From positions 96,001-160,000 of the forward strand of contig CBDIID010000003.1 of assembly GCA_965279515.1 (NCBI GenBank): a stretch of 64,000 nucleotides of DNA, given 5' to 3'. The stretch's first letter is position 1. Each line of letters begins with the position of its first letter. Positions 3,372 through 60,639 of this stretch are shown piece by piece. The stretch is from Turneriella sp. (lineage in GTDB: Bacteria; Spirochaetota; Leptospiria; Turneriellales; Turneriellaceae). Below the pieces are notes generated by a model, which saw only the letters and a program-made list of their open reading frames with translations, made no database searches and had not been told where the DNA came from. Position numbers and translations under genes: made by a program.

Positions 3372-3425
3372 GTCTGACGTTTCTAACCCGCAATATGCCG
3401 CCGTAGCCATGGAGGGCGAAGGCGG

Positions 3426-3722
3426 TTAGTGGAAAGGCTCCTGTAGAATCCTTGCCCCATGCCAAATGATACCTATTTCAACGCGATCTTCACGCACTCT
3501 GTAAATTATGCGATAATCTTGAAAGATGACCTCTCGATAGTCTTTATCAGGAAATTCCGGGACTTTTCGGCCCATTAAGGGATGCTGTTCCAGTTGCTTA
3601 ACGCGGATGTTTATTTCCCGGGCAAGTAACTTGGCATAGGGTAATGAAAACTGTTCAATATACTGGCAAATTGCTTCGAAGCTTTGTATTGCCGGTTCTG
3701 ACCACCTTATTCGGAAAGCCAT
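3426..3722 (-). CDS. RelE/ParE-family toxin
   Basis: IRWSEPA...PLMGRKVPE...YRIIYRV...IWHGAR. Confidence 0.85.
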   Translation of the reverse strand: MAFRIRWSEPAIQSFEAICQYIEQFSLPYAKLLAREINIRVKQLEQHPLMGRKVPEFPDKDYREVIFQDYRIIYRVREDRVEIGIIWHGARILQEPFH

Positions 3723-3901
3723 TTAGCCATGCGCTTTTCCACTTCTTCGTGATCAACGCCACCATTCTTATCTAAATCACTAAAGGCAGCGTCTACCCGT
3801 GCCCTGAAGTAGAGCTTTTCCATAATATCTGATACCGTAGCAGTATCTGGCAATGAGTCTATCATTTTGACGACCTCATCTTTTACTGTAGCCTGTGCCA
3901 T
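3707..3901 (-). CDS. Antitoxin partner of ParE-like toxin
   Basis: Small acidic ORF overlapping toxin start; KDEVVKMIDSLPD...HEEVEKRMAKW. Confidence 0.75.
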   Translation of the reverse strand: MAQATVKDEVVKMIDSLPDTATVSDIMEKLYFRARVDAAFSDLDKNGGVDHEEVEKRMAKWLSE

Positions 3902-4039
3902 AAGACAGGATAGCCAAGCCATTTAGTGCAGCAAGGATTTTCCAGAAATCTCGCTCTAAGCTAAAGTAAGCTCAATCACCAGGGCTCGACCGCGGCATGG
4001 ATGCCGCGTGCATGGTATTGCGGGTTAGAAATGTCAGAC

Positions 4040-4254
4040 AACATGGAATTTACACGAGGTCGATGGTGCGCCGCACAATAATAGTGGGCTTATTTGGAAA
4101 GCCGCATATTAAGCACCATCGATCTGCCGTAGACCGCTCGTTGCGCCTGACCAAACAAACGTCCCGTTTGTCAGGCGTCAACGATCTTTGCGGTCGGAGG
4201 CCGAGCACGCGAGGAGCTACGGCACCGCAGCGAGCGCAGCAGGTAAATTTTGTT
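4040..4254 (-). repeat. attC-like site R4 (subtype D)
   Basis: AAC...GTT folded repeat. Confidence 0.85.
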
Positions 4255-4332
4255 TTCTGACGTAGCTGCCCTTGTGAACCCGGCCATGGACGGCCGGGTG
4301 AAAATTTGGAATACTGGCCCGCGGCAAAATGA

Positions 4333-5280
4333 GTGAGGTCTCATAATTGGCTTGCTGCCCAGCTGGGAAAGCAAAATAAGTTCTTTGTGAAATGCCTCGG
4401 TAAGCTGAGTTTCTTCTCCGTGCTGCTCTTAGTGGCGATACTGCCAATTGGTGCACAACTGACGGAGAAGGATTTCGATGAGCTTCTTGTGGCCGTAGAG
4501 GCGAGTAATTTTAAGAAACTCAAAACAATATTAAATAAAGAAAAGGCGAACGCGAAAGACAAGCACGGTAAACCTCTTTTACACCGAGTGAAAGATATTC
4601 GAATTGCTAGACTTTTTCTCGAAAACGGTAGCAATGTCAATGCAACGGATGGTTATTTCGAGACAACAGCATTGCATAAAGGACCAAGTATTCAGTTTGC
4701 CAAACTCTTTATTGAATTCGGGGCAGACGTAAATGCGAGAACTAGGTATAAGCAAACGCCTTTATATGGGGTTGATACAATTGAACTGGCGAAGTTACTC
4801 GTCGAAAACGGCGCAGACATAAATGCAAGAAATGATTCAGGATATACCCCCCTGCATGTGACGAATAGTATTGCAGTCGCTGCTTTTCTTATCGATAAAG
4901 GCGCAGATGTTAATGCCAGAACTGATGACGGATCGACGCCGATACATCGAGTTCAGGACGTTCGAAAGATTAATCTGCTGATTGAAAAGGGAGCCGATAT
5001 TAACGCTCAGAATAATGCAGGTGAGACCGTTTTGCACCTAGCCGCAAAAGAGGGTCAAACTATTCATGTTGATAAGATGGAAGCAGGTCATCATGCTCCA
5101 TCGCGAACGGACTGGACAGAAAACAAGAAAATTATTAGATTGCTTACTACCCACGGAATAAATGCCTTTTTGAAAAATGCAAAGGGAGAAACAGCTTTTG
5201 AAATTGCTTGGGATAAACAAGTTAAAGCCCTTCTAAAGGCTGCGGAAGAAAAATATCGGGCTCAAATAAAGAGCAAGTAA
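4333..5280 (+). CDS. Secreted ankyrin-repeat protein (inverted cassette)
   Basis: Several GADVNAR...TPLH repeats; signal-peptide-like N-terminus; start uncertain. Confidence 0.9.
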   Translation: MRSHNWLAAQLGKQNKFFVKCLGKLSFFSVLLLVAILPIGAQLTEKDFDELLVAVEASNFKKLKTILNKEKANAKDKHGKPLLHRVKDIRIARLFLENGSNVNATDGYFETTALHKGPSIQFAKLFIEFGADVNARTRYKQTPLYGVDTIELAKLLVENGADINARNDSGYTPLHVTNSIAVAAFLIDKGADVNARTDDGSTPIHRVQDVRKINLLIEKGADINAQNNAGETVLHLAAKEGQTIHVDKMEAGHHAPSRTDWTENKKIIRLLTTHGINAFLKNAKGETAFEIAWDKQVKALLKAAEEKYRAQIKSK

Positions 5281-5385
5281 ATATGCTTTTGAGGAACATA
5301 AACTGTTTGAATTCTTGATTGCCGTGTTTTGACAACCAGTGCCCGCATGGAGGCGGGCAAATAACATTGGGCAGCTATGTCAGAG

Positions 5386-5601: not shown

Positions 5602-7338
5602 GAATCTGTAGAATAAGATTGCTTTGGCCTGAAAATTGCCGTAGTTACGTAGGTTATAATGCAACATATCGGGAGAAACCCATGCCGCGATTTAGATCAG
5701 AAAACAGAAGCCAGAATATGCTTGTGCCGGTCGATCTTTCGGATCAGATAATGAAGGGGACACTGGAAGCGACGATCAACGAAGCAATCAATCGGATGGA
5801 CATGACGCCGTTTACCCGCAGAATCAAGAACGACCTCACCGGTGCGCCGGCATATGATCCACGCTCGTTGCTCAAGGTGATTCTCTTTGCCTATTCGCGG
5901 GGGATTTTGTCTTCGCGCCGTATTGCCGATGCCTGCGAGAAGCACATTGTGTTCATGGCCTTGAGCGGTTATAGCAAGCCTAATTTTACCACAATTGCTG
6001 ATTTTATCTCTTCGATGGGGGCAGAGGTTAAGCAGGTTTTCATCCACATTCTGCGAGTCTGTGCGAAAATGGATTTAATCGGCGCGGAGCGCTTTGCGAT
6101 TGATGGGCACAAGCTTTCCTCGAGCGCCGCTAAGGAACATAGCGGTCGCTTTGCCGATTTCAAAAAGCGTATCGAAAAATACTCCGACCTGATCGGGGCT
6201 CTGGTCAGGCAGCATGCAGAAACAGATTTGAAAGAGAGAAAGGCAGCGTTGGCACAAAAGCGTAATCGGCTGACAGCGAAGAAAGAACGACTGGAGGGGT
6301 TTTTAGAATCCAACCAGGCTAAACGGGCAACGCGGAAATGCGGCAAAGAGCCGACGAGCAACGTGACGGATAACGAATCGGCCAAGATAATTTCATCGCA
6401 CGGGGTGATTCAGGGCTATAACGGTGTTGCGGCGACCGATGAGAAATGCCAGATTGTGATCGCGGCCGAAGCGCACGGTACTTCTTACGAGGGCAACCTG
6501 CTGATGCCAATGCTTGGTATAGCCGAAGAGAACATGGCGGATGTCGAAATAGATAAAACAATATCAGAGATACAGGTACTTGCGGACGCAAATTACTTCA
6601 ACGAAGCAAACCTGAAGGCTATGTCAGAGAAAGGGATCGATGCGTATATACCCGATCCGATGTTTCGCAAGCGCGATCCGCGGTTTGCGAATGCAGACGA
6701 CCACAAGGGTAAGACGCGCAGGAATGTCTATGACACGAAGAAGTCACAGGGCTTGCGCGGGTTCGGACAGGAGGATTTTATCCATGACAAGAACGGTGAT
6801 TTTTACATCTGTAAATCGAGTCACCGTCTGAACCGGTGGGCCAATCACGCGAGCAGTGGTGGCCGGGTTTACGGTATTGGAAAAATTGCGCACTGTCGGT
6901 CCTGTCCTTTGCGTAACGAGTGCATGCCCGGTGGTAATGCTCGGTCCAAGAAAATGATTACAGTCGCGAGCACAGATGCAGATAGCAGGCGCATGCCGTA
7001 TTCGACCGCGATGAAGGCTAAAATTGATTCACCAGAGGGCAAGGCGATCTATGCGAGGCGGTTGCAGATTGTGGAACCGGTGTTTGCGAACACCAGGGCG
7101 CATAAAGGGATGAATAAATTTACACTCCGCGGGAAGCGAAAAGTGAATATTCAGTGGCTGCTCTACATGTCGGTTCATAATCTTTCTAAGATTGCCAGGG
7201 CAATTCGTGCGAATCCGCAGTTACAGATAGCGTGATACGGCGTGGGAAATCAGTACTGAAGGAAAAGGCGATTTAGCGGGCAGAACAAAAGACGAACAGG
7301 CCTATTGCGCTACGAGCGGGGACTTTTTCTACAGATTC
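5602..7338 (+). mobile_element. IS1182-family IS
   Basis: Perfect 12-bp TIR GAATCTGTAGAA/TTCTACAGATTC; GTT duplicated at 5599-5601 and 7339-7341. Confidence 0.85.
5682..7235 (+). CDS. IS1182-family transposase
   Basis: GAPAYDPRSLLKVILFAY, AIDGHKL, LADANY, YARRLQIVEPVFAN motifs; RBS ggag before 5682. Confidence 0.9.
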   Translation: MPRFRSENRSQNMLVPVDLSDQIMKGTLEATINEAINRMDMTPFTRRIKNDLTGAPAYDPRSLLKVILFAYSRGILSSRRIADACEKHIVFMALSGYSKPNFTTIADFISSMGAEVKQVFIHILRVCAKMDLIGAERFAIDGHKLSSSAAKEHSGRFADFKKRIEKYSDLIGALVRQHAETDLKERKAALAQKRNRLTAKKERLEGFLESNQAKRATRKCGKEPTSNVTDNESAKIISSHGVIQGYNGVAATDEKCQIVIAAEAHGTSYEGNLLMPMLGIAEENMADVEIDKTISEIQVLADANYFNEANLKAMSEKGIDAYIPDPMFRKRDPRFANADDHKGKTRRNVYDTKKSQGLRGFGQEDFIHDKNGDFYICKSSHRLNRWANHASSGGRVYGIGKIAHCRSCPLRNECMPGGNARSKKMITVASTDADSRRMPYSTAMKAKIDSPEGKAIYARRLQIVEPVFANTRAHKGMNKFTLRGKRKVNIQWLLYMSVHNLSKIARAIRANPQLQIA

Positions 7339-7369
7339 GTTAGGCGCAGTGATTTGAGCTACGTATCAA

Positions 7370-7564
7370 TCATTGTTTCGCCAAGGAGGGCGAAACAATG
7401 CGAACACCACGATCTATGATTAGTTCTTTGAATAGAGCAGAATTGTGCACTTCTTTTGATACCTTTTCAGAATATTCAGCAAGTGAAAGATGCTTATTAT
7501 TCTCGTATTCTCTGTTCCGAATACTTCTGACCCATTCGACACAATCAAATTTCTTCTTCGTCAT
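7370..7564 (-). CDS. Small putative antitoxin downstream of PIN gene
   Basis: MTKKKFDCVEW ORF overlapping PIN gene end. Confidence 0.6.
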   Translation of the reverse strand: MTKKKFDCVEWVRSIRNREYENNKHLSLAEYSEKVSKEVHNSALFKELIIDRGVRIVSPSLAKQ

Positions 7565-8015
7565 AAACCACCTCTTTCGGACTGCGAATTTCTAAACTCC
7601 TATACCCTTCACGGATATTTATTCCATTAAAGCCCATAATTCGGCTCACGTTCACAATATGCTTAAAATTCCAACTTAGCAATAAATCAGCTCCAAAATG
7701 AGCCGCCGTTGCTATGTGCAAGGCATCAACCTGGCACCATTGTGGTACAACCTTCTCCGTAATATACATCTGTGCCAACGTTCGCACTTCTGGCGTGGTG
7801 GTAATTTCAACCTGATATTCCTCGGGTATCCCTTTCAATACATTCTTAATCTCGGTCGGTGCACCTTCAAGCTCTTTCAGAGTCGTATCTGAAATCAAAG
7901 CAATATATCTACCACTCTTAATTCGATCGATAAGCATCAGTGATTCGACCGAGAATTCCTCGTCAAAACAACCGCCAATAACCGACGTATCGAGATAAAC
8001 CTTCAGAACGCGCAT
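7545..8015 (-). CDS. PIN-domain (VapC-like) toxin
   Basis: VYLDTSV...DALHIATA...LLSWNFKHIVN. Confidence 0.85.
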   Translation of the reverse strand: MRVLKVYLDTSVIGGCFDEEFSVESLMLIDRIKSGRYIALISDTTLKELEGAPTEIKNVLKGIPEEYQVEITTTPEVRTLAQMYITEKVVPQWCQVDALHIATAAHFGADLLLSWNFKHIVNVSRIMGFNGINIREGYRSLEIRSPKEVVYDEEEI

Positions 8016-8138
8016 TTTCAGCTAAAATATGCTCTAAAGATATATAAGGTCAACGCATAAATGTCGTGGCCAAAATCGACTGATGCCCGCCACGGATGGC
8101 GGGGGCGCCTTGGAAAACCCTCTCAAATCATTGCGCCT

Positions 8139-8345
8139 AACGTGGAATTTACCTGAGGTTGAGTGACGCTTTGTTCAAGTTTGTGTTCTGTAAAGCCATT
8201 TTGCGTCACTCAATCTGCCCGGAGCGCCTTGCGGCAAAGCACAAAACAAGCGTCCCGCTTGTGCTTTGTCCGCGATCTTCTGGCGCGTAGGGCCGAGCAC
8301 GCGAGGAGCCACGGCACCGCAGCGGCGCAGCAGGTAAATTTTGTT
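8139..8345 (-). repeat. attC-like site R6 (subtype B)
   Basis: AAC...GTT; gagtgacgc/gcgtcactc hairpin. Confidence 0.85.
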
Positions 8346-8437
8346 GTACGCCGTTGCCGTTCGGATAGCCTCGATCAAGGAGGATCGAGGCGTATTTTTG
8401 TTTACGACCGACGATTAATATTTACGGCTCCTTACAG

Positions 8438-9121
8438 ATGTTCCAGAAATTTGGCCAGCTTTTGTTTCTGAGCGTCTCGATGTGTTTCTTCATAAACCCA
8501 AGCCTGATTGGAGCAAGTGATTACCCTGTCCCGGAAGGCTATTACCAAGGCCCCTGTGGAGAGTTATATACGGACAAATACATTGAGAATCTCATTAATT
8601 ATGATAGTTCAAAATCTACCCTTGTAAAGCATTTGGTACCATTACGCCATCTTAACCTACGATTAGAATTCTGGCCACAAAGTTATGGCTTTTATCTTGT
8701 TAAGACTTCACCTTCAAAGTATGAACGCTTCATGTTTTGGAAATGCAATTGTCACGGTCAGGATATGGGATTTAGCTTCAGCAAACTGAACCCCGCGGAT
8801 GACGCAAGTGTCGGCCTGTTCCTCTTAAGTGAACACTCGAGCGAATGGTCATGGAGCAAGAATTTGACGCCTGAAAGACGGTTCATTCGAAAAGAACGCC
8901 TTGAACGGAATCAGGTCTATGCCAAGGAGTTTTCTTTTGGTTTGAAGGACGGACGGGATGTTGTGCGAGCCGAACAGGCTGCTCAAGAAATAATTATTGA
9001 AAAGGAAAAAGCCTGGTCCTTTAATTTTAAGCTAATACCAATAGATTTGCGAGAAGGATTTTTTTGCCTTAAGCCCACTATTGAAGGCATTAAATCTGAT
9101 TTGTTTGAGCTTAAGAAGTGA
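8438..9121 (+). CDS. Hypothetical exported protein (inverted cassette)
   Basis: 227-aa ORF filling cassette, hydrophobic N-terminus. Confidence 0.7.
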   Translation: MFQKFGQLLFLSVSMCFFINPSLIGASDYPVPEGYYQGPCGELYTDKYIENLINYDSSKSTLVKHLVPLRHLNLRLEFWPQSYGFYLVKTSPSKYERFMFWKCNCHGQDMGFSFSKLNPADDASVGLFLLSEHSSEWSWSKNLTPERRFIRKERLERNQVYAKEFSFGLKDGRDVVRAEQAAQEIIIEKEKAWSFNFKLIPIDLREGFFCLKPTIEGIKSDLFELKK

Positions 9122-9182
9122 ACAGCGCCCGCACGATGCGGGCGAATGACCGTGAGTCATTAACCGTACAATTATTTCAGAC

Positions 9183-9395
9183 AACGTGGAAAATACCCGA
9201 CGTTGATGGTGCGTCATGCAATAAATACAGGCTTATTTGGAAAGCCGCATACGGAGCACCATCAATGTGCCCGAAGCGCCTCTCTGAGGAGCGCGAAACA
9301 AACCTCTGGGTTTGCGCGACGAAGAGATCTGTGGCGCGGAGGGCCGAGCACACGACCCAGCGCAGCGGTCGTGCGCGCAGCGGATATTTTTTGTT
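9183..9395 (-). repeat. attC-like site R7 (divergent)
   Basis: AAC...GTT folded repeat. Confidence 0.8.
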
Positions 9396-9444
9396 AGCTG
9401 CAGTTGCCGGTTCGGTAGCCGAGACCAAGGATGGTCGAGGCGAA

Positions 9445-9777
9445 TTACTTGCACCCAAGTTTATTGCAATATGTAGTTCGGATTTCTTGAGACTTAGATT
9501 CGCTTAACGCACCGACTCTGTATCGAATCAGCGACGTATGCAATGTATATATTTTGTCGCATCGGGCGAAGCTAGTCTTTGGCAATGTGCCACTTTTCAA
9601 GTCTGCCTGTTCAATTCGAATTGAATCGGGATGTCCCTGGTTTGAGGTAACAGAGAGGCAAATAAAATCGCCATTTCGGTCAGCAGGCGTCAGTACTACG
9701 ACCGGTCTCTGTTTGGAGCGAGCCAGGTCTGAGAAAGGAAAATTGACGGTTATCAGCTCAAACGGGCTTAAAGTCAT
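9445..9777 (-). CDS. PemK/MazF-family toxin
   Basis: FPFSDLARSKQRPVVVL...SFARCDKIYTL. Confidence 0.85.
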   Translation of the reverse strand: MTLSPFELITVNFPFSDLARSKQRPVVVLTPADRNGDFICLSVTSNQGHPDSIRIEQADLKSGTLPKTSFARCDKIYTLHTSLIRYRVGALSESKSQEIRTTYCNKLGCK

Positions 9778-9958
9778 TCCAGGCATCGTCCTCGGCATTA
9801 TCCCACGTTTTCGAAAGAGATTCTGACTGTGCTAACATTAGATTGGCGTCATCGATGCCGTGCTTTTGCTCTAAATACCCAATAAAATCCATGACTTCTT
9901 GCACAATTGGCTGCGGGAGCCTCTGTAGTTCTTGATATGCTAATTCCGCTAGACTCAT
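9758..9958 (-). CDS. DUF2281-like antitoxin
   Basis: LQRLPQPIVQEVMDFIGYL...WDNAEDDAWND; overlaps toxin. Confidence 0.75.
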   Translation of the reverse strand: MSLAELAYQELQRLPQPIVQEVMDFIGYLEQKHGIDDANLMLAQSESLSKTWDNAEDDAWNDFKPV

Positions 9959-10120
9959 TAGATACCTTGCGCCCTTACTTGCTAAAATATATTGAGGTGT
10001 AAACTATTATTGGCGTTGGGGACTTATGTCAGCCATTTCTTGCTCTTTTCTGAGCAAATAGCGCTAAACCCCGGCATGGATGCCGGGAGCGGACATTTTG
10101 TCTCACCGGCAATTGCAGCT

Positions 10121-10329
10121 AACGTGGATTTTACGCTGACGTTTTTTGACGCTCGTGTCATTTATTCAATTTGTAAAGCCGATTTGCGTCAAAAAATGTG
10201 GTCGTAGCGGCTCGCGGCGACGCGCGCAAACACACCTCCCGGTGTGCGCGTCGTCCGCGATCTTTGCCGCCCAGACCCGAGCACGCGAGGAGCTACGGCA
10301 CCGCAGCGGCGCAGCGCGTAAAATTTGTT
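10121..10329 (-). repeat. attC-like site R8 (A)
   Basis: AAC...GTT folded repeat. Confidence 0.85.
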
Positions 10330-10460
10330 CTCTGACGTAGTTGCGGCTGCAAGCCCGGGCAGGGATGGCCGGGCGGCCACTTTATACAAAAATTCTTGGA
10401 CATAGAATAAACAAGCTTTACACACGAAGCCTGCTGAGCATATCGAATCTTATCTGTTCA

Positions 10461-10913
10461 ATGAGGCCAACAAGGATCCATTACTTCTACGCACAAAATT
10501 GGCCGTTAAAGCTTTGGTTCTGTTTTGCAATCTTACTGACGACGATAATTGTTTTGACTCTATCGGACTTAACAATTACAGCTCTTCAGAACTGGCGAGC
10601 TGTCGCTAGATTATTTGCAATATTAGTTTTAGGACCGCTCATTGGCTTTTTTGTAGGCCTATTATTTAGCTCGTTGATTGTCAGCCCTTTATACTTCAGC
10701 CAATTAGAAAAGAATGGAGGCCCTTTTCAAATTGGAGATCAAGTAGAGATACTCGTAAAACCCCACCGCGGACGAATTGTTCGTGTATATGCGCTCGGGC
10801 AAGGTTACAGTGTTCGGGTTGAGCTTGGCGCCGCAGAAAGGGAAAAATTCAAAGATTTCTTTAGCGGTACTGCGCTGCTTTTAAAGACCAGGAATAGCGT
10901 TCTGGGATCTTGA
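10461..10913 (+). CDS. Hypothetical membrane protein with KOW-like C-terminus (inverted cassette)
   Basis: Two TM segments; FQIGDQVEILVKPHRGR. Confidence 0.6.
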   Translation: MRPTRIHYFYAQNWPLKLWFCFAILLTTIIVLTLSDLTITALQNWRAVARLFAILVLGPLIGFFVGLLFSSLIVSPLYFSQLEKNGGPFQIGDQVEILVKPHRGRIVRVYALGQGYSVRVELGAAEREKFKDFFSGTALLLKTRNSVLGS

Positions 10914-10981
10914 GTCTGTCCCAATTTTGTTAATGCGCCGACATGGATGTCGGCGGAGTACATGCCGCAACTATGTCAGAG

Positions 10982-11189
10982 AACGCGGAATTTACCTGAC
11001 ATTTGGTGACACTTATGTCATTAATTCAATCAGGAAAGCCGAATTGTGTCACCAAATGTGCCCGGAGCGCCTCGCGGCAAAGCACAAAACAAGCGTCCCG
11101 CTTGTGCTTTGTCCGCGATCTTCTGGCGCGTAGGGCCGAGCACGCGAGGAGCCACGGCACCGCAGCGAGCGCAGCAGGTAAATTTTGTT
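10982..11189 (-). repeat. attC-like site R9 (C)
   Basis: AAC...GTT; ttggtgacac/gtgtcaccaa hairpin. Confidence 0.85.
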
Positions 11190-11201
11190 GTCTGAAGTGC
11201 G

Positions 11202-11864
11202 CTATTCGGTAATGACATTTGAAGCTATTTTGCAATACCTTGTAAGCTCGGGCTGGATTCTAAGAATTTGGGTCTTTGGGGAAATATAGAATGGAGTAGG
11301 TAAGTCAAGTGATTCCCTATTGATTTTGCGATCACTCTCTTTCGTTGCCATGATTTCAGATTCGTTCTTGAAATAGATATCAAGGAATAATCTATGAGCC
11401 CGCACTGATCGTACGATACGAAATTGACAGAATTTCCAAGAGTCAACCAGGAATGAAGTTTCTTTCAGGCCTGAGATGACAGTTAAATTTCCATTTTTTT
11501 GGAAGGATATTCTCTGAAAATTATTGAGGGCTGGTAGACCGAGCAAGACGGCAAAGACCGTAAAGAACAGGCAAACCCATAGGGGTGCCCATTGATTTCC
11601 AACCTCTGCGGCCATCTCATCGAAGGATTCCGGTCGAAAAAGCCTAGTTCGGGCAAATAAGAACAAGCCCATCAAGGAGAGAAGAAAAAAGAACGCCACG
11701 GCTAACAGATGCAGAAATGTCGGTTGCGTAGTAATGATAAAGTTTTGGCCATTATCTTGAAGCATAATATCGTGCCAGAAAATGAAACAGTAGCCTATTA
11801 CAGATAAAATGAACAGGATCGAAAAAAAAGTAAAGAATCGAGTTGCAATTCGTTTCTTAGACAT
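11202..11864 (-). CDS. Hypothetical membrane protein
   Basis: 220 aa, three TM segments, fills cassette. Confidence 0.7.
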   Translation of the reverse strand: MSKKRIATRFFTFFSILFILSVIGYCFIFWHDIMLQDNGQNFIITTQPTFLHLLAVAFFFLLSLMGLFLFARTRLFRPESFDEMAAEVGNQWAPLWVCLFFTVFAVLLGLPALNNFQRISFQKNGNLTVISGLKETSFLVDSWKFCQFRIVRSVRAHRLFLDIYFKNESEIMATKESDRKINRESLDLPTPFYISPKTQILRIQPELTRYCKIASNVITE

Positions 11865-11884
11865 AACTATAGCGCATTTCAGAC

Positions 11885-12094
11885 AACGTTGGATTTTACG
11901 CTGACGTTTTTTGACGCTTGTGTCATTTATTCAATCTGTAAAGCCGATTTGCGTCAAAAAATGTGGTCGTAGCGGCTCGCGGCGACGCGCGAAAACACAC
12001 CTCCCGGTGTGCGCGTCGTCCGCGATCTTTGCCGCGGAGACCCGAGCACGCGAGGAGCTACGGCACCGCAGCGGCGCAGCGCGTAAAATTTGTT
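11885..12094 (-). repeat. attC-like site R10 (A)
   Basis: AAC...GTT folded repeat. Confidence 0.85.
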
Positions 12095-12189
12095 GGGCGC
12101 CGTTGTCGCTACGTAAAGCTCGGCCAAGGAGGGCCGAGCGTGAGCCTTTTCCCCTGATTATTCGAGAAAATGCTTTTTAGCCTGTTCAC

Positions 12190-12729
12190 ATGAAACAATT
12201 CGGAATTATGTCGCATTGGGGATGGACCATATTTCTTGTCATACTACTTGGGTGTAAAACCGCCCCGCCGGATTCGGTTGAAACGCTTAATGATGTTCAA
12301 TTAGAAGAGGACGAAGACCCCGCTGATTCAACGCGACTTATAATCAAGAAAATTGGACATACAGAGGCCAATGGCTTCAGACAATTAAGTGTACGAATCG
12401 AAATTTCTAGCTACGGCGAAGTTATGCAGTCTTTTCAAGAGCTCTTCATTACTTTTGGCTCGATTGAAAAGCTAGTCTTCGGTGAAAAGATTGCCTATTT
12501 CATTTCATGCGACAGGCAAGGGTCAACTTGGGCTGCCAAGAAAGCCATTATTGTATGGGATAAAGAAGGCATTTGGAGTATTTTGCCGCTGCATTTTGAT
12601 CGCGCCACGCTTCATAAAAATGAGAAGCGTTTCCTGATAGATGAGAAAATTGGCGTGATCGGCGAAAATCCTACTGGGAACCAGCTCTATGAGTTCAATG
12701 ATGGCTTGCTAACATTGTATAAACCCTGA
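12190..12729 (+). CDS. Putative lipoprotein (inverted cassette; same protein at 60030)
   Basis: VILLG-C lipobox-like. Confidence 0.75.
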   Translation: MKQFGIMSHWGWTIFLVILLGCKTAPPDSVETLNDVQLEEDEDPADSTRLIIKKIGHTEANGFRQLSVRIEISSYGEVMQSFQELFITFGSIEKLVFGEKIAYFISCDRQGSTWAAKKAIIVWDKEGIWSILPLHFDRATLHKNEKRFLIDEKIGVIGENPTGNQLYEFNDGLLTLYKP

Positions 12730-12811
12730 CTGACGTCATCCTGTTCAGCTTGCAAACAGGCGCGCAAGGATGCGCGCGAAATCGAAATTGATTTATGCGA
12801 CAATGGCGCCC

Positions 12812-13019
12812 AACGTGGAAAATACCCGAATTGCGCCCTCGCGGGTGTAAAGTGTAAATAATCACGGTTTATGCGACTTTCGTGGGAGCGCATTTGCCCG
12901 GAGCGCCTCGCGAGCCCGCCAATGCAGGCCCACTGGCCTGCGGGCGCAGCGATCTTTGGCGCGCAGGGCCGAGCACGCGACCCAACGTAGTGGTCGCGGC
13001 GCAGCGGGTATTTTTTGTT
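12812..13019 (-). repeat. attC-like site R11 (E)
   Basis: AAC...GTT; aaaatacccg/cgggtatttt outer stem. Confidence 0.85.
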
Positions 13020-13346
13020 CTCTGCCGTTGTTGACCGCGGTTACCTGCGCGGCCATGGCGTTTTACATGCCGACCCAACCGGGCAAGAGCGCCGTCGGTT
13101 AAACTTTATTTAATTTCAAAAGCCAAGCTTTGACTTGCTAAGTGTAGCATTCGATATAACCAAAGATTGCCTTGCAATCTTTGTCGGCAGCTTACGGCAG
13201 AAAGCAAGGCGTGTAATACGCCGTGGTCTTTGCCGCGCTTGTGCTAAACCTCTTCGCGCCAAAGTTCTTAGGGGGAGGGCAACCATTGCCCAGGTTAACG
13301 CCTTTGTCTTTTGCGCGCTCGTGGGAGCGAGGCAACAATGGCAGAG
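13020..13346. other. Gene-less cassette type B, copy 1 (candidate structured ncRNA)
   Basis: No credible ORF; many hairpins; near-identical copy at 40396-40710. Confidence 0.65.
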
Positions 13347-13553
13347 AACGTGGAATTTACCTGAGGTTGAGTGACGCTTTGTTCAGCTTTGTATTTTGTA
13401 AAGCCATATTGCGTCACTCAATCTGCCCGGAGCGCCTCGCGGCAAAGCACAAAACAAGCGGCCCGCTTGTGCTTTGTCCGCGATCTTTGGCGCGTAGGGC
13501 CGAGCACGCGAGGAGCCACGGCACCGCAGCGAGCGCAGCAGGTAAATTTTGTT
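13347..13553 (-). repeat. attC-like site R12 (B)
   Basis: AAC...GTT folded repeat. Confidence 0.85.
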
Positions 13554-13634
13554 GTCTGAAGTTGCCATGCAATTAGGTTTTTTCGACTTTGGACCACAAT
13601 CCCCTTAGGTCGGCCAATTCTTTTCGGGCAATCT

Positions 13635-14075
13635 CTACATATGGCTCAGAGTCGAGCCCATGTCCGGACTGAGTATTTCATTATTGATCTTCACCATAAT
13701 TTTACTGGGATCGACAGTAATTCGTTGAGAAATATTTGGTCGAATTCTAAGGCTTAGTATCGTATCGTCTTTGTTGTTTTCTTCTGGGAAGTAGTAGTAA
13801 GAAACTATTCCTGGCACCCAGGGAATAATAGGGAATACGGGCCCAACCCAGAATGTTTCAATTCGATCAGGTCGTATTCTCAAGCCCAAATCTACTGCTT
13901 TTGTTTCGTAATAGAAATTCAAGATCTTGAATTCTTTCAGATTTGAATACCCGCCAAAAAGAGTGGTTCTTTCCAATTCTTTTGCCGGTTTTTCTGCAGC
14001 TCGATAAATAAATTTATTATATGAGATGCAAGAAAAAAGAAGTAATGGAAAAAGGAATGGGAATAATTTACTCAT
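13635..14075 (-). CDS. Putative lipoprotein
   Basis: LLLFS-C lipobox. Confidence 0.7.
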   Translation of the reverse strand: MSKLFPFLFPLLLFSCISYNKFIYRAAEKPAKELERTTLFGGYSNLKEFKILNFYYETKAVDLGLRIRPDRIETFWVGPVFPIIPWVPGIVSYYYFPEENNKDDTILSLRIRPNISQRITVDPSKIMVKINNEILSPDMGSTLSHM

Positions 14076-14090
14076 ATGACAATTGCAGCT

Positions 14091-14298
14091 AACGTGGATT
14101 TTACGCTGACGTTTTTTGACGCCTGCGTCATTTATTCAATTTGTAAAGCCGATTTGCGTCAAAAAATGTGGTCGTAGCGGCTCGCAGTGGCGCGCAAAAG
14201 CAAGCGTCCCGCTTGCGCGACATCTGCGATCTTTGCCGCGGAGACCCGAGCACGCGAGGAGCTACTGCACCGCAGCGGCGCAGCGCGTAAAATTTGTT
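14091..14298 (-). repeat. attC-like site R13 (A variant)
   Basis: AAC...GTT folded repeat. Confidence 0.85.
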
Positions 14299-14420
14299 AG
14301 GCGACGTTGCCGCGAGCTCGGGTCGGGCAAGGAGGCCCGAACCGAATCCCGAGTAACGGCGGGGTTGCAAACTTCGTTTACATGATAAATGTTTTAAATT
14401 TTTGCGAATTTAAGATTAAT

Positions 14421-14840
14421 ATGAAAACCGGCGCTAAGATTCTTTTATGTTATGAAGCAATTATTTTGGTAGCTCTAAGTTACATTGTTACTGATTTTTT
14501 CAGGCATGATACTAGGATATCAGGTAAGGTAGTAGGGAAAACTGATACGCTGAATAAAGGGCGCTTAGCTACATACCTAGATGTGCAATACTCATTTGAA
14601 GGTTCTAAGTATACCGGGCAAGCAAACTATCCGTTTAGAAGCGACGAAAAGCGGCCATTGATTGAAGATCAGGTGGAAATTAAGCTAAATAGCAAAAAGC
14701 CAGATAGTTTCTTTTTACCTCGGTACAATCTGTATTTAAGTGGCATAATTGCCCTAACACTTCTCGGTGCATTCGGATTTGTCATAGCTTATGTCATTAA
14801 GAATATGCCGATTTCTGAAAATCGGTCTGAAGGAGAATAA
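14421..14840 (+). CDS. DUF3592-like membrane protein (inverted cassette)
   Basis: TM, GKVVG...VQYSFEGSKY beta region, TM. Confidence 0.6.
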   Translation: MKTGAKILLCYEAIILVALSYIVTDFFRHDTRISGKVVGKTDTLNKGRLATYLDVQYSFEGSKYTGQANYPFRSDEKRPLIEDQVEIKLNSKKPDSFFLPRYNLYLSGIIALTLLGAFGFVIAYVIKNMPISENRSEGE

Positions 14841-14908
14841 GTATCAAAACGAAATGCCGCGCCCGCACGGATGCGGGCGAAAAAAATGCGACGCGGCAAT
14901 GTTCGCCT

Positions 14909-15117
14909 AACGTGGAAAATACCCGAATTGCGCCCGCGCGGGTGTAAAGTGTAAATAATCACGGTTTTATGCGACTTTCGTGGGAGCGCATTTGCCCGTA
15001 GCGCCTCGCGAGCCCGCCAATGCAGGCCCACTGGCCTGCGGGCGTAGCGATCTTCGGCGCGTAGGGCCGAGCACGCGACCCAGCGTAGCGGTCGCGGCGC
15101 AGCGGGTATTTTTTGTT
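14909..15117 (-). repeat. attC-like site R14 (E)
   Basis: AAC...GTT folded repeat. Confidence 0.85.
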
Positions 15118-15305
15118 AGCCGCCGTTACCGGATTCGCGCGGCTGGCGAACAACCCGAAGGTCAGCTATATACTGTATTTCGATCTTATTAGTCACCGAG
15201 GAGTTGTCGCCAGGATCAAAGGCGTAAGCAGCGAAATCTGGCTGTATTTTCTGATAAAAAATCCTCTTTTTCTCCCCTTCGGGCGCGAAGGAGGTAATGG
15301 TGGCT
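15118..15305. other. Gene-less cassette type A, copy 1
   Basis: 188-bp ORF-less cassette, five copies in window. Confidence 0.75.
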
Positions 15306-15517
15306 AACGTGGAAAATACCCGAATTGCGCCCCCGCGGCTGTAAAGTGTAAATAATCACGGCTTTATGCGACTTTCGCGGGAGCGCATTTGCCCGTAGCG
15401 CCTCGCGAGCCTGCCAAAAGCACACCTCCCGGTGTGGCAGGCGCAGCGATCTTTGGCGCGTAGGGCCGAGCACGCCCGCCAACGAAGTGCGGGCGAGCGG
15501 AGCGGGTATTTTTTGTT
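15306..15517 (-). repeat. attC-like site R15 (E mosaic)
   Basis: AAC...GTT folded repeat. Confidence 0.85.
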
Positions 15518-15623
15518 AGGCGCCGTTTGGCGGATATCAGGGGAAAAGCTTGCCAGCCATGGAGGGCTGGCAAGAAGCCTAAAAAAAGATGACATGCAGA
15601 GGGCACTTTTATATGTTTTGCCT

Positions 15624-15836
15624 ATGTCTGTCTCTACTGATCCGAAAGTTATGGGTGGAAAGCCATGTATCACCGGCACTCGAGTAACAGTAGGTGTCAT
15701 TTTAGGTTTAATAGCAAGCGGCAGGACTAATTCGGAAATTCTCGCCGCATACCCATATTTAACAGAGAAAGGCATACGCGAAGCGATAGAGTATGCGGCT
15801 TGGCGTATGCAAGAGCAAGAAGTCGCTCTAAACTAA
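15624..15836 (+). CDS. DUF433 antitoxin
   Basis: DPKVMGGKPCITGTRVTV...ILAAYPYLT. Confidence 0.85.
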   Translation: MSVSTDPKVMGGKPCITGTRVTVGVILGLIASGRTNSEILAAYPYLTEKGIREAIEYAAWRMQEQEVALN

Positions 15837-15839
15837 CCC

Positions 15840-16208
15840 TTGAAGTTACTGATTGATATGAATTTGTCACCCGCATGGGTGAAATTCTTAGCGGATAATG
15901 GCTTTGAAGCAATTCATTGGTCGAGAATCGGCGCTGGCAATGCACCTGACGAAGACCTTATGTCCTGGGCTGTTGCCAATAAGCATATTGTTTTCACCGA
16001 AGATTTAGACTTTTCTGAGCTCATCGCTTTGACCAACGCAAAAGAACCAAGCATACTTCAAATTCGCAGTCAGGATAACCTGCCCGATGCGGCTGGTCAT
16101 TTCGTGCTCACGGCATTGAATCGATTTGGACCGGAACTCGAATCAGGTGCAATTGTTGTCCTGGATCAGAAAAAATCTCGCGCCCGCATTTTACCATTTC
16201 AAAAATAG
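15840..16208 (+). CDS. DUF5615 PIN-like toxin
   Basis: MKLLIDMNLSP...TEDLDFSEL. Confidence 0.85.
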   Translation: MKLLIDMNLSPAWVKFLADNGFEAIHWSRIGAGNAPDEDLMSWAVANKHIVFTEDLDFSELIALTNAKEPSILQIRSQDNLPDAAGHFVLTALNRFGPELESGAIVVLDQKKSRARILPFQK

Positions 16209-16261
16209 CCCGACCATGGATGGTCGGGAGATCAAATAGGAGCCACCGACAAATGGTGCCT

Positions 16262-16469: not shown

Positions 16470-16509
16470 GTCTGAAGTGCCGCAATTCGGATTCTTAAAG
16501 TCGCGGCCA

Positions 16510-48975: not shown

Positions 48976-48978
48976 AGT

Positions 48979-50556: not shown

Positions 50557-50714
50557 CTCTGACGTAGTTGCGCATGCGAGCCCGGGCATGGAGGGCCGGG
50601 CGACAAGTAGACCAGGCTCCTCGCCCTTTAGCGTTTTAAAATGAAAATCTGTGTTGCCGCTCTATGTTTGGCCAGAAAAAAATCCATTACTGATACAGAA
50701 TTTAAGAACTATTT

Positions 50715-51206
50715 ATGAATTATTTGCTTCTCCTGTTTCTGCTCCTTGCATATCCAATAGAATTATTCACCATGCAACCTTGTAGGTCTAATGAGATTAA
50801 AACGGAACACATCGGACTTGCGCCCATTAGCCTCAATGCCGGCTACCCGCAGATTTTATCAGTGCGAAGCGGATTCCTTTTTGATTTTTTGGAAAATCCA
50901 TGTGAGAGATTCGCCCTGGATATTTATGTTGAGCCTGGAATTACTGGTGCCAAGGGCATATTTGCAGTGAGTTTGGAAGGTTATTACTCAGGTATTTACG
51001 TCGGCTTAGGCTACTTGTATAATTATCTGCTCTTAACAAGCAGTATGAAGCAACAATATCTGGGCGGTGAGTTTGGGTTGCGCGTATTTAATCTTAATTT
51101 AAATGCGGGTTTGTACTTTAGCCAGCCACTTTTAACTGAAACCTCAGATTTGGTGCTAAATCTACAAATAGGGTATACGTTTTTGAATACGTTGAGACTG
51201 CAATAA
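50715..51206 (+). CDS. Exported protein, possible small outer-membrane beta-barrel (inverted cassette)
   Basis: Signal peptide; alternating beta pattern ending LQIGYTF. Confidence 0.55.
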   Translation: MNYLLLLFLLLAYPIELFTMQPCRSNEIKTEHIGLAPISLNAGYPQILSVRSGFLFDFLENPCERFALDIYVEPGITGAKGIFAVSLEGYYSGIYVGLGYLYNYLLLTSSMKQQYLGGEFGLRVFNLNLNAGLYFSQPLLTETSDLVLNLQIGYTFLNTLRLQ

Positions 51207-51298
51207 CGTACAATAGGCCAAGTTTAGCAAAACTCTTCAGATACAGGTCGAGCACCGCCATGGATGGCGGTGAAGCACAACCCGCAACTATGTCAGAG

Positions 51299-53017: not shown

Positions 53018-53123
53018 CTCTGACGTAGGTGCGCCTGTGAGCCCGGCAAGGAGGCCGGGCGACTTCGATGCAAGCCCATGTTTGAGGGAAGTGCGCCACT
53101 CGCTATTGATAATTTAGTATCAT

Positions 53124-53828
53124 TTGCAAATGTACTTTACGCAAGACAGACACGGCAATATAATGCATTTCATGGACAGCGAATCCTCTGAGATAAACGA
53201 GCGGCCAGAGATCTGGGAAACAGTTTTCGCAGAAAAGCAAACAATATGGGGATTCGAGCCGACGCTGTCGGCCATTTTTGCAAAGGATTACTTTGTTCGA
53301 TTGGGTATCAAGAATGTTCTCATACCTGGTGTCGGTTACGGTAGGAACGCGAAACCGTTTATAGAACACGGCATGTCCGTAACAGGAATTGAAATATCTA
53401 AAACAGCGATTTCTCTGGCTCGTTCGCAGCTAAAGCTAGAGATACCCATTCACCACGGTTCCGTGTCAAATATGCCGTTCGACACTCACCAATACGAAGG
53501 TATTTTCTGCTATGGACTAATCTACCTGCTGGATGCTGCCGGGCGGACAAAGCTCATCAGAAATTGCTGGGACCAATTGGCATCTGGCGGTGCCATGATC
53601 TTTACTGTCATCTCAAAAGAAGCGCCGATGTATGGGCAAGGCCCCCGGCTCGGAGACGACTGGTATGAAATTCATCCCGGTATGAAAATGTATTTCTACG
53701 ATGCCGATTCAGCCAAGCAGGAGTTCGGTGCTTATGGGCTTCTCGAACAATTCAAAATTGATGAACCACTACATACCGGCAGCTCATTTCCATTCATCAA
53801 TGTAGTATGCAGGAAGAACAAAGCGTAG
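53124..53828 (+). CDS. Class I SAM-dependent methyltransferase (inverted cassette)
   Basis: VLIPGVGYGRNA, VTGIEIS motif; start uncertain. Confidence 0.85.
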   Translation: MQMYFTQDRHGNIMHFMDSESSEINERPEIWETVFAEKQTIWGFEPTLSAIFAKDYFVRLGIKNVLIPGVGYGRNAKPFIEHGMSVTGIEISKTAISLARSQLKLEIPIHHGSVSNMPFDTHQYEGIFCYGLIYLLDAAGRTKLIRNCWDQLASGGAMIFTVISKEAPMYGQGPRLGDDWYEIHPGMKMYFYDADSAKQEFGAYGLLEQFKIDEPLHTGSSFPFINVVCRKNKA

Positions 53829-53951
53829 ATCGCTAAGACCAAAATTTATCGTAAACCAAGGGGTGGTGAATTAATAAGCGCTCGATTAGATACCTCAAAA
53901 ATTGCGCCGCCATGGACGGCGGCGAAAAACAAAGGCGCACCTATGTCAGAG

Positions 53952-55076: not shown

Positions 55077-55193
55077 CTCTGCAGTGTTTAGCTACGTTAG
55101 CCGCGGGCGACATGGAGGTCGCTCGCGGACGGCTTTGCCAGAATTAAGAGCTTTTTCTGGGCAAATTTATACACTGTATGTACATTGTACATA

Positions 55194-55484
55194 GTGAAGC
55201 TGGCTTTTGTATGGGATGAAGCCAAGAATCTCGAGAATATTAGGAAGCATGGAGTCTCTTTCAAGGAAGCCAGCACGATCTTTGGCCGTATACCGTATGA
55301 GATTTACGATGATCCAGATCATTCAGAAAAGGAGCATCGGTATCTGGCAATCGGCTTCAGCGATAAGGCTCGCGCCTTACTGGTAAGCCATACTGAAAAT
55401 GCGACTGGCACAGAGATTAGAATTATATCTGCTCGCAAAATGACGAAACAAGAACGGGCAGACGCGTTTGGAGGCAAACTATGA
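55194..55484 (+). CDS. brnT: BrnT toxin, copy 2
   Basis: Close paralog of 32309..32599. Confidence 0.88.
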   Translation: MKLAFVWDEAKNLENIRKHGVSFKEASTIFGRIPYEIYDDPDHSEKEHRYLAIGFSDKARALLVSHTENATGTEIRIISARKMTKQERADAFGGKL

Positions 55485-55711
55485 GAAAGGAATATGATCT
55501 AACCAAACTGACGAAGGCTTCGCCTAAATACTTGAAACACATAAAGAAGCCGGTGACGATTCGGCTTGAGCCACAGATAATTGCATATTTTAAGGGCCTG
55601 GCAGAAACTACCGGATTGCCTTACCAATCGTTACTGAATTTTGTTCTACGCGACTATGCTAACGAGAACAGGAAACCCAATGCGAATTGGGGAAAAGTAG
55701 CTTCGCGCTAA
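55481..55711 (+). CDS. brnA: BrnA antitoxin, copy 2
   Basis: One aa different from 32596..32826. Confidence 0.85.
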   Translation: MRKEYDLTKLTKASPKYLKHIKKPVTIRLEPQIIAYFKGLAETTGLPYQSLLNFVLRDYANENRKPNANWGKVASR

Positions 55712-55763
55712 GGCGGCCGGCAAGGATGCCGGACGCTCTTCTCTATTGCTAAACATTGCAGAG

Positions 55764-55972: not shown

Positions 55973-56069
55973 CTCTGACGTAGTTGCGCGTGACCACCCG
56001 ACCAAGGATGGGCGGGTGGGCATTCGAATAAGAGTCTTGCCTGGAATAATGATTAGTTGACCTTGTATC

Positions 56070-56696
56070 TTGCGATCAATTATGCTTTTTATGGCTGGCT
56101 CTTCCCAAATGTTGAATTTTCGACTTGGACTCATCAGTACCATTCCTATACTGATATTTGTTCAATGTAACGTATTGAGTGTCTCTTATAAACGACGCAG
56201 TGATTTAAGAGAGCCTGAAATTTGCCCGCAAAGTAAGCGAACAGCGCCAGTTGGCTATAATTTATTCTCGACTAATCGGTTTCAAATACAAACTGATCTC
56301 AAAGTTAGCTGGGAAGCCCATCGGTATTGGGCTCTTGCTTCAATCATACCAACCCTTGGTTTCTTGCGAACTGTCGCTATGAACTCTATCGAATTAAAGG
56401 TTACTAACAACAGGCCGTTACCAATAATATTTTCTCAATGTGATGTACTTTTTTTTGATACGAATAATATTTCTACAAAAATAGGAGTTAGTGTTCCAAA
56501 CTGTGAGCAATTACCTAAGTACACAGTTTTACCACAAAAGACCGTTCAAATCGATGTCGAACAAGAAGAAATGACTGTCGCTAGTTTAAAGACTATCAAG
56601 ATAAATTTCAGGTCTGCGAGCCAGACCGATTTGTTGTCACAGGACATTAACATCGAAGAAGATTGGAGCCTCTGCTTTTCGGCAATAAACCGTTAG
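56070..56696 (+). CDS. Putative lipoprotein (inverted cassette)
   Basis: ILIFVQ-C lipobox-like; start probably downstream. Confidence 0.6.
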   Translation: MRSIMLFMAGSSQMLNFRLGLISTIPILIFVQCNVLSVSYKRRSDLREPEICPQSKRTAPVGYNLFSTNRFQIQTDLKVSWEAHRYWALASIIPTLGFLRTVAMNSIELKVTNNRPLPIIFSQCDVLFFDTNNISTKIGVSVPNCEQLPKYTVLPQKTVQIDVEQEEMTVASLKTIKINFRSASQTDLLSQDINIEEDWSLCFSAINR

Positions 56697-56759
56697 AATT
56701 GCAAGAAACTCTGCGCCGCCACGGATGGCGGCGAAGTAAAGCGCGCAACTATGTCAGAG

Positions 56760-59253: not shown

Positions 59254-59324
59254 TTAGAATTTCCTATTGGGACTTGTTCTTATTCTCTCGTGAAAAGATA
59301 TATTATTTTTTAACTATGACGCAC

Positions 59325-59535
59325 AACGTGGAAAATACCCGAATTGCGCCCCCGCGGGTGTAAAGTGTAAATAATCACGGCTTTATGTGACTTTCGCGGG
59401 AGCGCATTTGCCCGAAGCGCCTCGCGGCAAAGCACAGAACAAGCGTCCCGCTTGTGCTTTGTCCGCGATCTTTGGCGCGCAGGGCCGAGCACGCGAGCCA
59501 ACGAAGTGCTCGCGGCGCAGCGGGTATTTTTTGTT
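59325..59535 (-). repeat. attC-like site R60 (E/B mosaic)
   Basis: AAC...GTT folded repeat. Confidence 0.85.
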
Positions 59536-59724
59536 AGCCGCCGTTACCGGATTCGCGCGGCTGGCGAGCAACCCGAAGGTCAGCGAGATACTGTAGTTCG
59601 ATATTATTAGTAACCGAGGAGTTGTCGCCAGGATCAAAGGCGTAAGCAGCGAAATCTGGTTGTACTCTCTGATAACAAATCCTCTTTTTCTCCCCTTCGG
59701 GGCGCGAAGGAGGTAATGGTGGCT
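59536..59724. other. Gene-less cassette type A, copy 5
   Basis: Copy of 15118-15305. Confidence 0.75.
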
Positions 59725-59934
59725 AACGTTGGATTTTACGCTGACGTTTTTTGACGCTTGTGTCATTTATTCAATCTGTAAAGCCGATTTGCGTCAAAAA
59801 ATGTGGTCGTAGCGGCTCGCGGCGACGCGCGAAAACACACCTCCCGGTGTGCGCGTCGTCCGCGATCTTTGCCGCGGAGACCCGAGCACGCGAGGAGCTA
59901 CGGCACCGCAGCGGCGCAGCGCGTAAAATTTGTT
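59725..59934 (-). repeat. attC-like site R61 (A; same as R10)
   Basis: AAC...GTT folded repeat. Confidence 0.85.
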
Positions 59935-60029
59935 GGGCGCCGTTGTCGCTACGTAAAGCTCGGCCAAGGAGGGCCGAGCGTGAGCCTTTTCCCCTGATTA
60001 TTCGAGAAAATGCTTTTTAGCCTGTTCAC

Positions 60030-60569
60030 ATGAAACAATTCGGAATTATGTCGCATTGGGGATGGACCATATTTCTTGTCATACTACTTGGGTGTAAAAC
60101 CGCCCCGCCGGATTCGGTTGAAACGCTTAATGATGTTCAATTAGAAGAGGACGAAGACCCCGCTGATTCAACGCGACTTATAATCAAGAAAATTGGACAT
60201 ACAGAGGCCAATGGCTTCAGACAATTAAGTGTACGAATCGAAATTTCTAGCTACGGCGAAGTTATGCAGTCTTTTCAAGAGCTCTTCATTACTTTTGGCT
60301 CGATTGAAAAGCTAGTCTTCGGTGAAAAGATTGCCTATTTCATTTCATGCGACAGGCAAGGGTCAACTTGGGCTGCCAAGAAAGCCATTATTGTATGGGA
60401 TAAAGAAGGCATTTGGAGTATTTTGCCGCTGCATTTTGATCGCGCCACGCTTCATAAAAATGAGAAGCGTTTCCTGATAGATGAGAAAATTGGCGTGATC
60501 GGCGAAAATCCTACTGGGAACCAGCTCTATGAGTTCAATGATGGCTTGCTAACATTGTATAAACCCTGA
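60030..60569 (+). CDS. Putative lipoprotein, duplicate of 12190..12729
   Basis: Identical translation. Confidence 0.75.
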   Translation: MKQFGIMSHWGWTIFLVILLGCKTAPPDSVETLNDVQLEEDEDPADSTRLIIKKIGHTEANGFRQLSVRIEISSYGEVMQSFQELFITFGSIEKLVFGEKIAYFISCDRQGSTWAAKKAIIVWDKEGIWSILPLHFDRATLHKNEKRFLIDEKIGVIGENPTGNQLYEFNDGLLTLYKP

Positions 60570-60639
60570 CTGACGTCATCCTGTTCAGCTTGCAAACAGG
60601 CGCGCAAGGATGCGCGCGAAATCGAAATTGATTTATGCG

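Follow-up and report, generated by a model that had tools for sequence, protein, structure and literature searches.

The window analysed here is a stretch of 64,000 nt of Turneriella sp. contig CBDIID010000003.1 (contig C3 of genome G000, positions 96,001 to 160,000). It holds an array of gene cassettes separated by ~207-nt attC-like repeat units, and a distinct class of these cassettes is bracketed by two short hairpins with a GGA-containing loop, one behind the left GTT (hp1) and one ahead of the right AAC (hp2), always on the same DNA strand. An exact scan of the window for stems of at least 5 bp closing an ANGGAN hexaloop found 40 hairpins on + and 0 on -, against 0.46 on average and at most 3 (both strands summed) in 100 dinucleotide-type shuffles. 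The two arrays of the contig (159 kb) contain 75 on + and 0 on -, and the other 4.68 Mb contains 35 and 39. Among perfect hexaloop hairpins with stems of at least 7 bp, the loop is ANGGAN in 35 of 48 inside the arrays versus 4 of 333 outside (2 per strand). Scan, shuffles and genome counts together show the motif to be genuine, tied to one strand and local.

A sequence-only reading of the window had quoted ten example hairpins, counted 26 cassettes with a hairpin pair, and placed the motif always on the + strand, the predicted attC bottom strand. All ten examples turn up in the exact scan, at or a few bases from where they had been placed; about 26 cassettes are counted by eye if imperfect stems, 5-nt loops and two cassettes split by insertion sequences (IS) are included; and the single + strand cassette that had been excepted as lacking hairpins, 27097-27748 (open reading frame (ORF) at 27144-27740), is indeed the only one. 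The 40:0 and 75:0 counts agree with the proposed strand rule. That reading had also named a motif equally common on both strands, or scattered as an ordinary repeat, as the outcome that would contradict it; the contrast between 75:0 in the arrays and 35:39 elsewhere rules out a dispersed repeat of the repetitive extragenic palindrome (REP) or bacterial interspersed mosaic element (BIME) type. The repetition in related genomes that it had proposed gave 110:0 relative to the orientation of the repeat units in five relatives. We thus confirm the observation, and it holds across the genus. Elsewhere in the genome, a hairpin with an AAGGAG loop and an 8-bp AT-rich stem occurs at ~3284, 9910 and 16536 of the 19.8-kb contig C2, and its spacing of 6626 bp points to a small replicon triplicated in tandem, either truly or as an artefact of assembly.

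The loop is conserved well beyond what was imposed on it. When nothing but a stem of at least 5 bp and GGA at loop positions 3-5 was prescribed, the closing C-G pair and the A at position 1 were present in 142 of 142 hairpins, giving C-A-N-G-G-A-N-G. Position 2 varies among A, T and C, with G in no more than 3 of the 142, and position 6 is chiefly G in hp1 and T in hp2; TAGGAGG and AGGAG loops occur as variants. The hairpins lie outside ORFs and have GC-rich stems (29 of 30 GC-rich hexaloop hairpins of the arrays). The stems turn over with pairing kept and the loop stays invariant, which argues for ongoing selection on the loop. Internal stem mismatches, written for the + strand, are purine-purine in 30 cases, G.T in 10, A.C in 3 and pyrimidine-pyrimidine in 3 (counts inflated by related copies), a spectrum that points to + as the folded strand.

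In its invariant and variable positions the cassette loop matches the ANGGAN pattern of CsrA, RsmA and RsmN, and the 142 of 142 hairpins bear out the earlier proposal that it is the CsrA/RsmE binding consensus. According to the available text of the respective reports, hairpin 2 of RsmZ has a G-rich stem and an AAGGAU hexaloop that is read through its A, G, G and A (PMC3791407), RUACARGGAUGU is the consensus for E. coli, and the flaB leaders bound by Leptospira CsrA contain a GGA hexaloop (PMC8668096). The host genome itself has a fliW-csrA operon (CsrA, PF02599, 82 bits; adjoining FliW, PF02623, 105 bits), and all four flagellin leaders examined contain a GC-stem hairpin with the loop C-A(A/G)GGA(A/T)-G, plus a GGA at the ribosome site. 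The cassette hairpins therefore resemble the organism's own presumptive CsrA sites, and a CsrA interpretation is well founded as a binding-site match.

We hypothesize that the hairpins are CsrA-type, sense-specific boundary elements in + sense RNA, a prediction from sequence to which we assign a probability of about 0.35. A conserved cassette frame, consisting of arm, hp1, cargo, hp2 and arm, would carry cargo with an apparent promoter of its own in either orientation. Their place of action would be + sense RNA, antisense with respect to the direction in which the array is normally read; CsrA bound to hp2 or hp1 could then act on transcripts leaving or entering the cassette in the + direction, and might, for example, limit read-through towards the integrase end across the adjacent attC. 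RNA made in the usual - direction would hold only the complementary loop and would go unrecognised. We infer the + sense RNA over the sites, the binding of CsrA there and the effect of that binding. The exact identity of the ANGGAN loop, the fliW-csrA operon and flagellin-leader hairpins of the host, the indication that + is the folded strand, the restriction of the loop to the arrays, unlike a loop of the generic terminator or REP type, and the siting of the hairpins outside ORFs around apparently self-expressed cargo favour this proposal.

A number of observations weigh against it. Among 81 non-redundant double-hairpin cassettes, hp1 starts 23 nt past GTT in 51 and hp2 ends 24-27 nt ahead of AAC in 53, and the median gap to the end of the paired arms is 4 nt for hp1 and 7 nt for hp2, so that hairpin position is fixed to the attC ends rather than to the genes. 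Between hp1 and the start codon there are ~34 to more than 300 nt; hp1 as Shine-Dalgarno sequence or start site of the cargo was rejected because these distances are long and variable. The usual placement of CsrA sites, at or near a ribosome site or in a small RNA (sRNA) sponge, is not that of the cassette hairpins. The hairpin strand is independent of cargo orientation, and in 21 double-hairpin cassettes the longest ORF is on the - strand, so that the hairpins are absent, in the GGA sense, from the cargo's own mRNA. Twenty hp2 loops lack GGA altogether (ACGAG in 13, ACGAT in 5, ACGAA in 2), and two toxin-antitoxin (TA) cassettes in the window have no hairpins. A consensus scan of positions 8000-17000 for a promoter of + sense RNA upstream of hp1 gave only the chance level (12 versus 10.9 expected). 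In one frame family, a -35-like GGCTTTACA stands 50-110 nt downstream of hp1; if this putative element is the promoter, hp1 lies upstream of it. The attC-fixed geometry, the independence of cargo orientation and the co-occurrence of the hairpins within cassettes favour a role on a folded bottom strand or in the cassette frame.

Such a role has to be seen against the build of the array. The ~207-nt units form two arrays on the contig, each with all units on the same strand, with 77 nhmmer matches at 85.7-170 kb and ~50 at 3.734-3.805 Mb. The window contains 63 units, every one on +, such as those at 4040-4254 (AAC, closing stem, three internal hairpins, GTT), 8139-8345 and 16262-16469. The predicted fold, a closing stem and three hairpins in a four-way junction, has compensatory changes in 28 of 59 pairs, with G.U pairs on the + strand, and is far more complex than the usual attC hairpins. 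Read on the - strand, the central hairpin with the T-rich run behind it resembles an intrinsic terminator. At gathering scores, the window had no match in Rfam. Two genomes of another family of the same class each have one copy of the unit (L042 in G043 and L043 in G049), with no enrichment of hairpins, which hints at horizontal transfer of cassettes.

Cassettes were collected from six genomes of the genus, this one and five relatives. GTT and AAC bound 321 of the 334 cassettes, with same-strand sites between them, as in an integron. Beyond GTT and AAC lie cassette-specific inverted-repeat arms, in which about 78-94% of 273 non-redundant cassettes have Watson-Crick pairs at positions 1-15, with one fixed departure: at position 8, 255 of the 273 have T.G on the + strand and none has a Watson-Crick pair. 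This wobble may be a strand-selection mark that replaces extrahelical bases. Duplicated cassettes have the left unit in common in 118 pairs versus the right unit in 27, and unit subtype is associated with cassette class on the left side only (p=1.5e-5 left, 0.35 right). A cassette is therefore a unit plus the sequence to its right, the majority of cassette genes read on the - strand, and + is the attC bottom strand. These data support the view that the array acts as an integron-type cassette array, in which a gene moves with its own attC and crossover takes place at one end.

A profile search with TIGR02249 found no integron integrase at cut-off in this genome or the five relatives, and none was found in the flanks of the arrays in this genome. 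In the relatives (L044-L048), the layout is the classical divergent one: a tyrosine recombinase of 367-411 aa is encoded to the right of the array, 1-38 kb away and on the same strand as the units. Its orthologue here (contig positions 2926093-2927193; L004:1219-2319:-) matches TIGR02249 over the whole protein with 161 bits (cut-off 265), carries an N-terminal extension of ~95 aa, and ends in SPL like VchIntIA (2a3v); it lacks ~40 residues where VchIntIA carries the IntI extra domain. An IntI with that domain beside an attI, as in a typical integron, was thus not found. Neither array lies near the gene, which has no more than a partial unit ~2 kb away, so that both arrays are clusters of attC sites without an adjacent integrase.

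On this platform the hairpins could instead be accessory structures of an extended attC on bottom-strand single-stranded DNA (ssDNA), flanking the long arm helix and the four-way junction. The atypical integrase with its N-terminal extension, or a host factor, would read them and tune folding, recombination or processing of this class of cassettes. We regard this as a close rival, only slightly less probable than the CsrA proposal. The hairpin strand is always the attC bottom strand irrespective of cargo orientation, and the fixed offsets from GTT and AAC with their short gaps to the paired arms, the near-universal T.G in those arms, and the difference in the cassette's own unit type between the classes are all as this explanation would have it. 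Co-occurrence points the same way: both hairpins are present in 88 of the 334 cassettes, one in 38 and none in 208, and units with hairpins on both sides number 30, against 30.8 in permutations, an effect within the cassette and none across the unit. Because the two hairpins co-occur within one cassette, they would flank the attC in an excised circle, as the sequence-only reading had supposed. A mobile ~330-nt unit composed of hp2, attC-like unit and hp1 was rejected, given that solitary units are mostly without both hairpins and that adjacency has no effect.

An ssDNA role would, however, make the exact CsrA consensus, common to the flagellin leaders, a coincidence or mimicry. Recombination should not hinge on the orientation or promoters of the cargo, yet the class association described below is strong; most cassettes have no hairpins and are still apparently mobile; and no ssDNA loop-binding protein is known here. 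Hairpin cassettes are also duplicated at least as often as others across arrays and genomes (7 of 81 clusters versus 7 of 152), which in addition weakly disfavours a lock against excision.

The class itself is well defined. Cargo orientation was that of the longest ORF (minimum 60 aa, ratio 1.5 or more); 71 cassettes were left out as ambiguous. In the full set of 334, cassettes with the ORF on + have a hairpin in 64 cases and none in 13, and those with the ORF on - have one in 39 and none in 147 (Fisher test, p=4e-21, a value that overstates the evidence because the cassettes are mutually related); with one cassette per sequence cluster, the counts are 58 and 9 for + and 35 and 132 for -. This upholds the claim that the hairpins define a distinct class tied to gene orientation. 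The same claim had put inverted genes in the foreground, a point that is refined here. TA pairs on both strands belong to the class: Pfam identifies ParE, MazF, PIN and PIN/MazE on -, and DUF433/DUF5615, RelB/YafQ, BrnT/BrnA and PIN on +, next to non-TA cargo on + (ankyrin, GFA, methyltransferase and unknown proteins). The class is for this reason better described as cargo that appears self-expressed, in either orientation, within a conserved frame.

The conserved frame raises the possibility that the hairpins mark a separate route of cassette creation, in which cargo with its own promoter was put, in either orientation, into a pre-existing frame and the hairpins were kept mainly by descent. 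Frames are homologous over differing cargos, with an identical 23-nt left arm and linker in 51 of 81, and the arms of compact cassettes are diverse and specific to each cassette. A conserved ~150-nt leader follows hp1 ahead of unrelated ORFs in one frame family (CTCATAAC, GTCATTTTGTCAC, GGCTTTACA, GGGAGCAAKTTCYTATAT); its members are the window cassettes 42271-42906 and 45788-46704 and cassettes of the second array. The leader has no relevant Rfam match: positions 42000-47000 gave, at E<=1, a single weak match to lysM-Actino RNA (RF03090, 16.6 bits versus a gathering score of 153.8, E=0.83). Orientation is relaxed among cassettes with both hairpins (53 on +, 21 on -) compared with hairpin-free ones (13 on +, 147 on -). 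Against this, the loop is kept on stems that change with their pairing, which calls for ongoing selection on it; no empty frame was found, the smallest double-hairpin cassette measuring 534 nt; and both hairpins are missing from most solitary units. We consider this explanation improbable.

Protein-independent structural insulators, GC hairpins that would stop or pause transcription or stabilise RNA ends around self-expressed cargo with the loop constrained for some structural reason, would suit the GC-rich stems and the bracketing of the whole expression module outside its ORFs (margins of 63-150 nt, versus medians of 19 and 30 nt in compact hairpin-free - cassettes), but most hairpins have no trailing T tract on either strand and the invariant, strand-fixed C-A-N-G-G-A-N-G loop is left unexplained, so that we give this little credence.

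More broadly, and tentatively, the hairpins may be a strand-specific accessory module of the integron recombination site, whose loop CsrA or the atypical integrase would read on the folded bottom strand or on an RNA copy of it, giving own-promoter cassettes a different recombination or expression regime.

The hairpins located in the window, given here as hp1 and hp2 in that order, all lie on the + strand. Among the TA cassettes with genes on -, only hp2 is listed for the ParE cassette 3372-4039 (3991-4008), the MazF cassette 9396-10120 (10070-10087) and the PIN/MazE cassette 20825-21678 (21631-21648), and the PIN cassette 19780-20638 has 19822-19849 and 20584-20605. TA cargo on + is framed by 15549-15574 and 16209-16228 (DUF433/DUF5615, 15518-16261), 29385-29410 and 30002-30020, the latter with the 5-nt loop AGGAT (RelB/YafQ, 29352-30050), 36371-36388 and 37071-37090 (PIN, 36346-37117), and, in two BrnT/BrnA cassettes, 32205-32232 and 32832-32847 (32181-32878) and 55101-55128 and 55717-55732 (55077-55763). 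The ankyrin cassette 4255-5385 has 4278-4299 and 5340-5359, the GFA cassette 34768-35365 has 34789-34810 and 35315-35334, and the methyltransferase cassette 53018-53951 has 53041-53060 and 53905-53924. In two further cassettes the ORF is on -: 21894-22595 (21919-21944 and 22542-22561) and 43114-43897 (43139-43162 and 43842-43860).

The remaining pairs are 8368-8391 and 9126-9144 (5-nt loop ACGAT) in cassette 8346-9182; 10353-10374 (one mismatch) and 10936-10955 in 10330-10981; 12118-12139 and 12760-12777 in 12095-12811; 14323-14340 and 14860-14879 in 14299-14908; 35598-35619 and 36114-36133 in 35575-36199; 39107-39128 and 40143-40162 in 39084-40188; 50580-50601 and 51253-51272 in 50557-51298; and 55994-56019 and 56714-56733 in 55973-56759. 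Both window members of the leader family have variant loops: 42294-42314 (TAGGAGG) and 42861-42879 (AGGAG) in 42271-42906, and, in 45788-46704, 45811-45832 followed by 46655-46681 with the loop ACGAG, which has no GGA. Cassette 5602-8138 (7371-7400 and 8086-8103) has its hp1 shifted by an IS insertion at 5619-7235, and cassette 59935-61990 (59958-59979 and 60600-60617) is a copy of 12095-12811 with an IS481-like insertion behind hp2.

These two are the transposase insertions that split hairpin cassettes. A 401-aa IS481-like transposase gene is present in four copies inside cassettes (1847-3052, 40745-41950, 47123-48328 and 60674-61879), and two DDE (DUF772) transposase genes likewise lie inside cassettes (5619-7235 and 24735-25826). 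A ~188-nt cassette without an ORF recurs in 11 copies in the genome, at 15118-15305, 17253-17434, 19377-19565 and 59536-59729 of the window and in the second array; it has a hairpin with a GGCG loop, followed by AAGGAGG-N-ATG reading into the next unit.

An integron cassette is usually conceived as a promoterless gene with its attC. The present genus offers a natural contrast, with compact, oriented, hairpin-free cassettes beside framed, orientation-relaxed ones that carry two regulator-like motifs, and it touches on two open questions, the origin of cassettes and the coexistence of own-promoter cassettes with an array. If CsrA binds the hairpins, the candidate sites in this genome's arrays would number on the order of 100, and there would be a tie between cassette biology and the flagellin-FliW-CsrA circuit. 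Should the accessory-module description be true, it would be the first link between the motif of a global post-transcriptional regulator and integron cassette architecture, and possibly a second route of cassette creation.

Full-text literature searches, covering articles but not their supplements, returned no description of GGA or CsrA hairpins at integron cassette ends, and as far as that literature goes, paired, strand-fixed CsrA-type hairpins bracketing cassettes are a layout not described for integrons. A general integron feature was ruled out for 77 other IntI-like loci from other phyla, in which flanking GGA hairpins stay at background level (10 on + and 7 on - in 896 kb). IS200/IS605 elements, which transpose as ssDNA, resemble the cassettes in having a subterminal hairpin at each end, both on one strand, and a strand-specific logic; unlike in those elements, the cassette stems vary freely, only the loop is constant and the cargo is diverse. 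Ends of the IS200/IS605 type were rejected for these cassettes, the genome's one Y1 transposase gene lying far from the arrays.

Among structured RNAs, the DUF1874 motif is a multistem structure that recurs from one intergenic region to the next and has been suggested as an unusual attC, with no integrase beside it (Weinberg et al., 2017; PMC5737381, available text). The units share with it a complex multistem structure repeated between ORFs; they differ in that the window has no Rfam match at gathering scores, and the available text on the DUF1874 motif describes no flanking GGA hairpins. With the hairpins of the CsrA/RsmA-RsmE systems (RsmZ and RsmY, hag and flaB leaders), the cassette hairpins have in common the loop, its invariant and variable positions, and the GC-rich stem, a likeness drawn from sequence alone; they differ in being paired at cassette ends at an attC-fixed distance, where the known sites stand at a ribosome site or in clusters within an sRNA, and in being fixed to the attC bottom strand even where the cargo reads the opposite way.

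The closest relatives in layout are integron attC arrays. The Vibrio cholerae repeat (VCR) arrays are sedentary chromosomal integrons whose TA cassettes and inverted cassettes have promoters of their own. Like integron arrays, the arrays described here have same-strand repeats with AAC and GTT ends, R-box-like pairing and an unpaired spacer, cassettes that move with one flanking repeat and, in the relatives, a recombinase divergent from the array. Unlike them, they are built of ~207-nt four-way-junction units with cassette-specific arms of 15-19 nt and a fixed T.G, and their recombinase falls below the IntI cut-off and is without the IntI extra domain.

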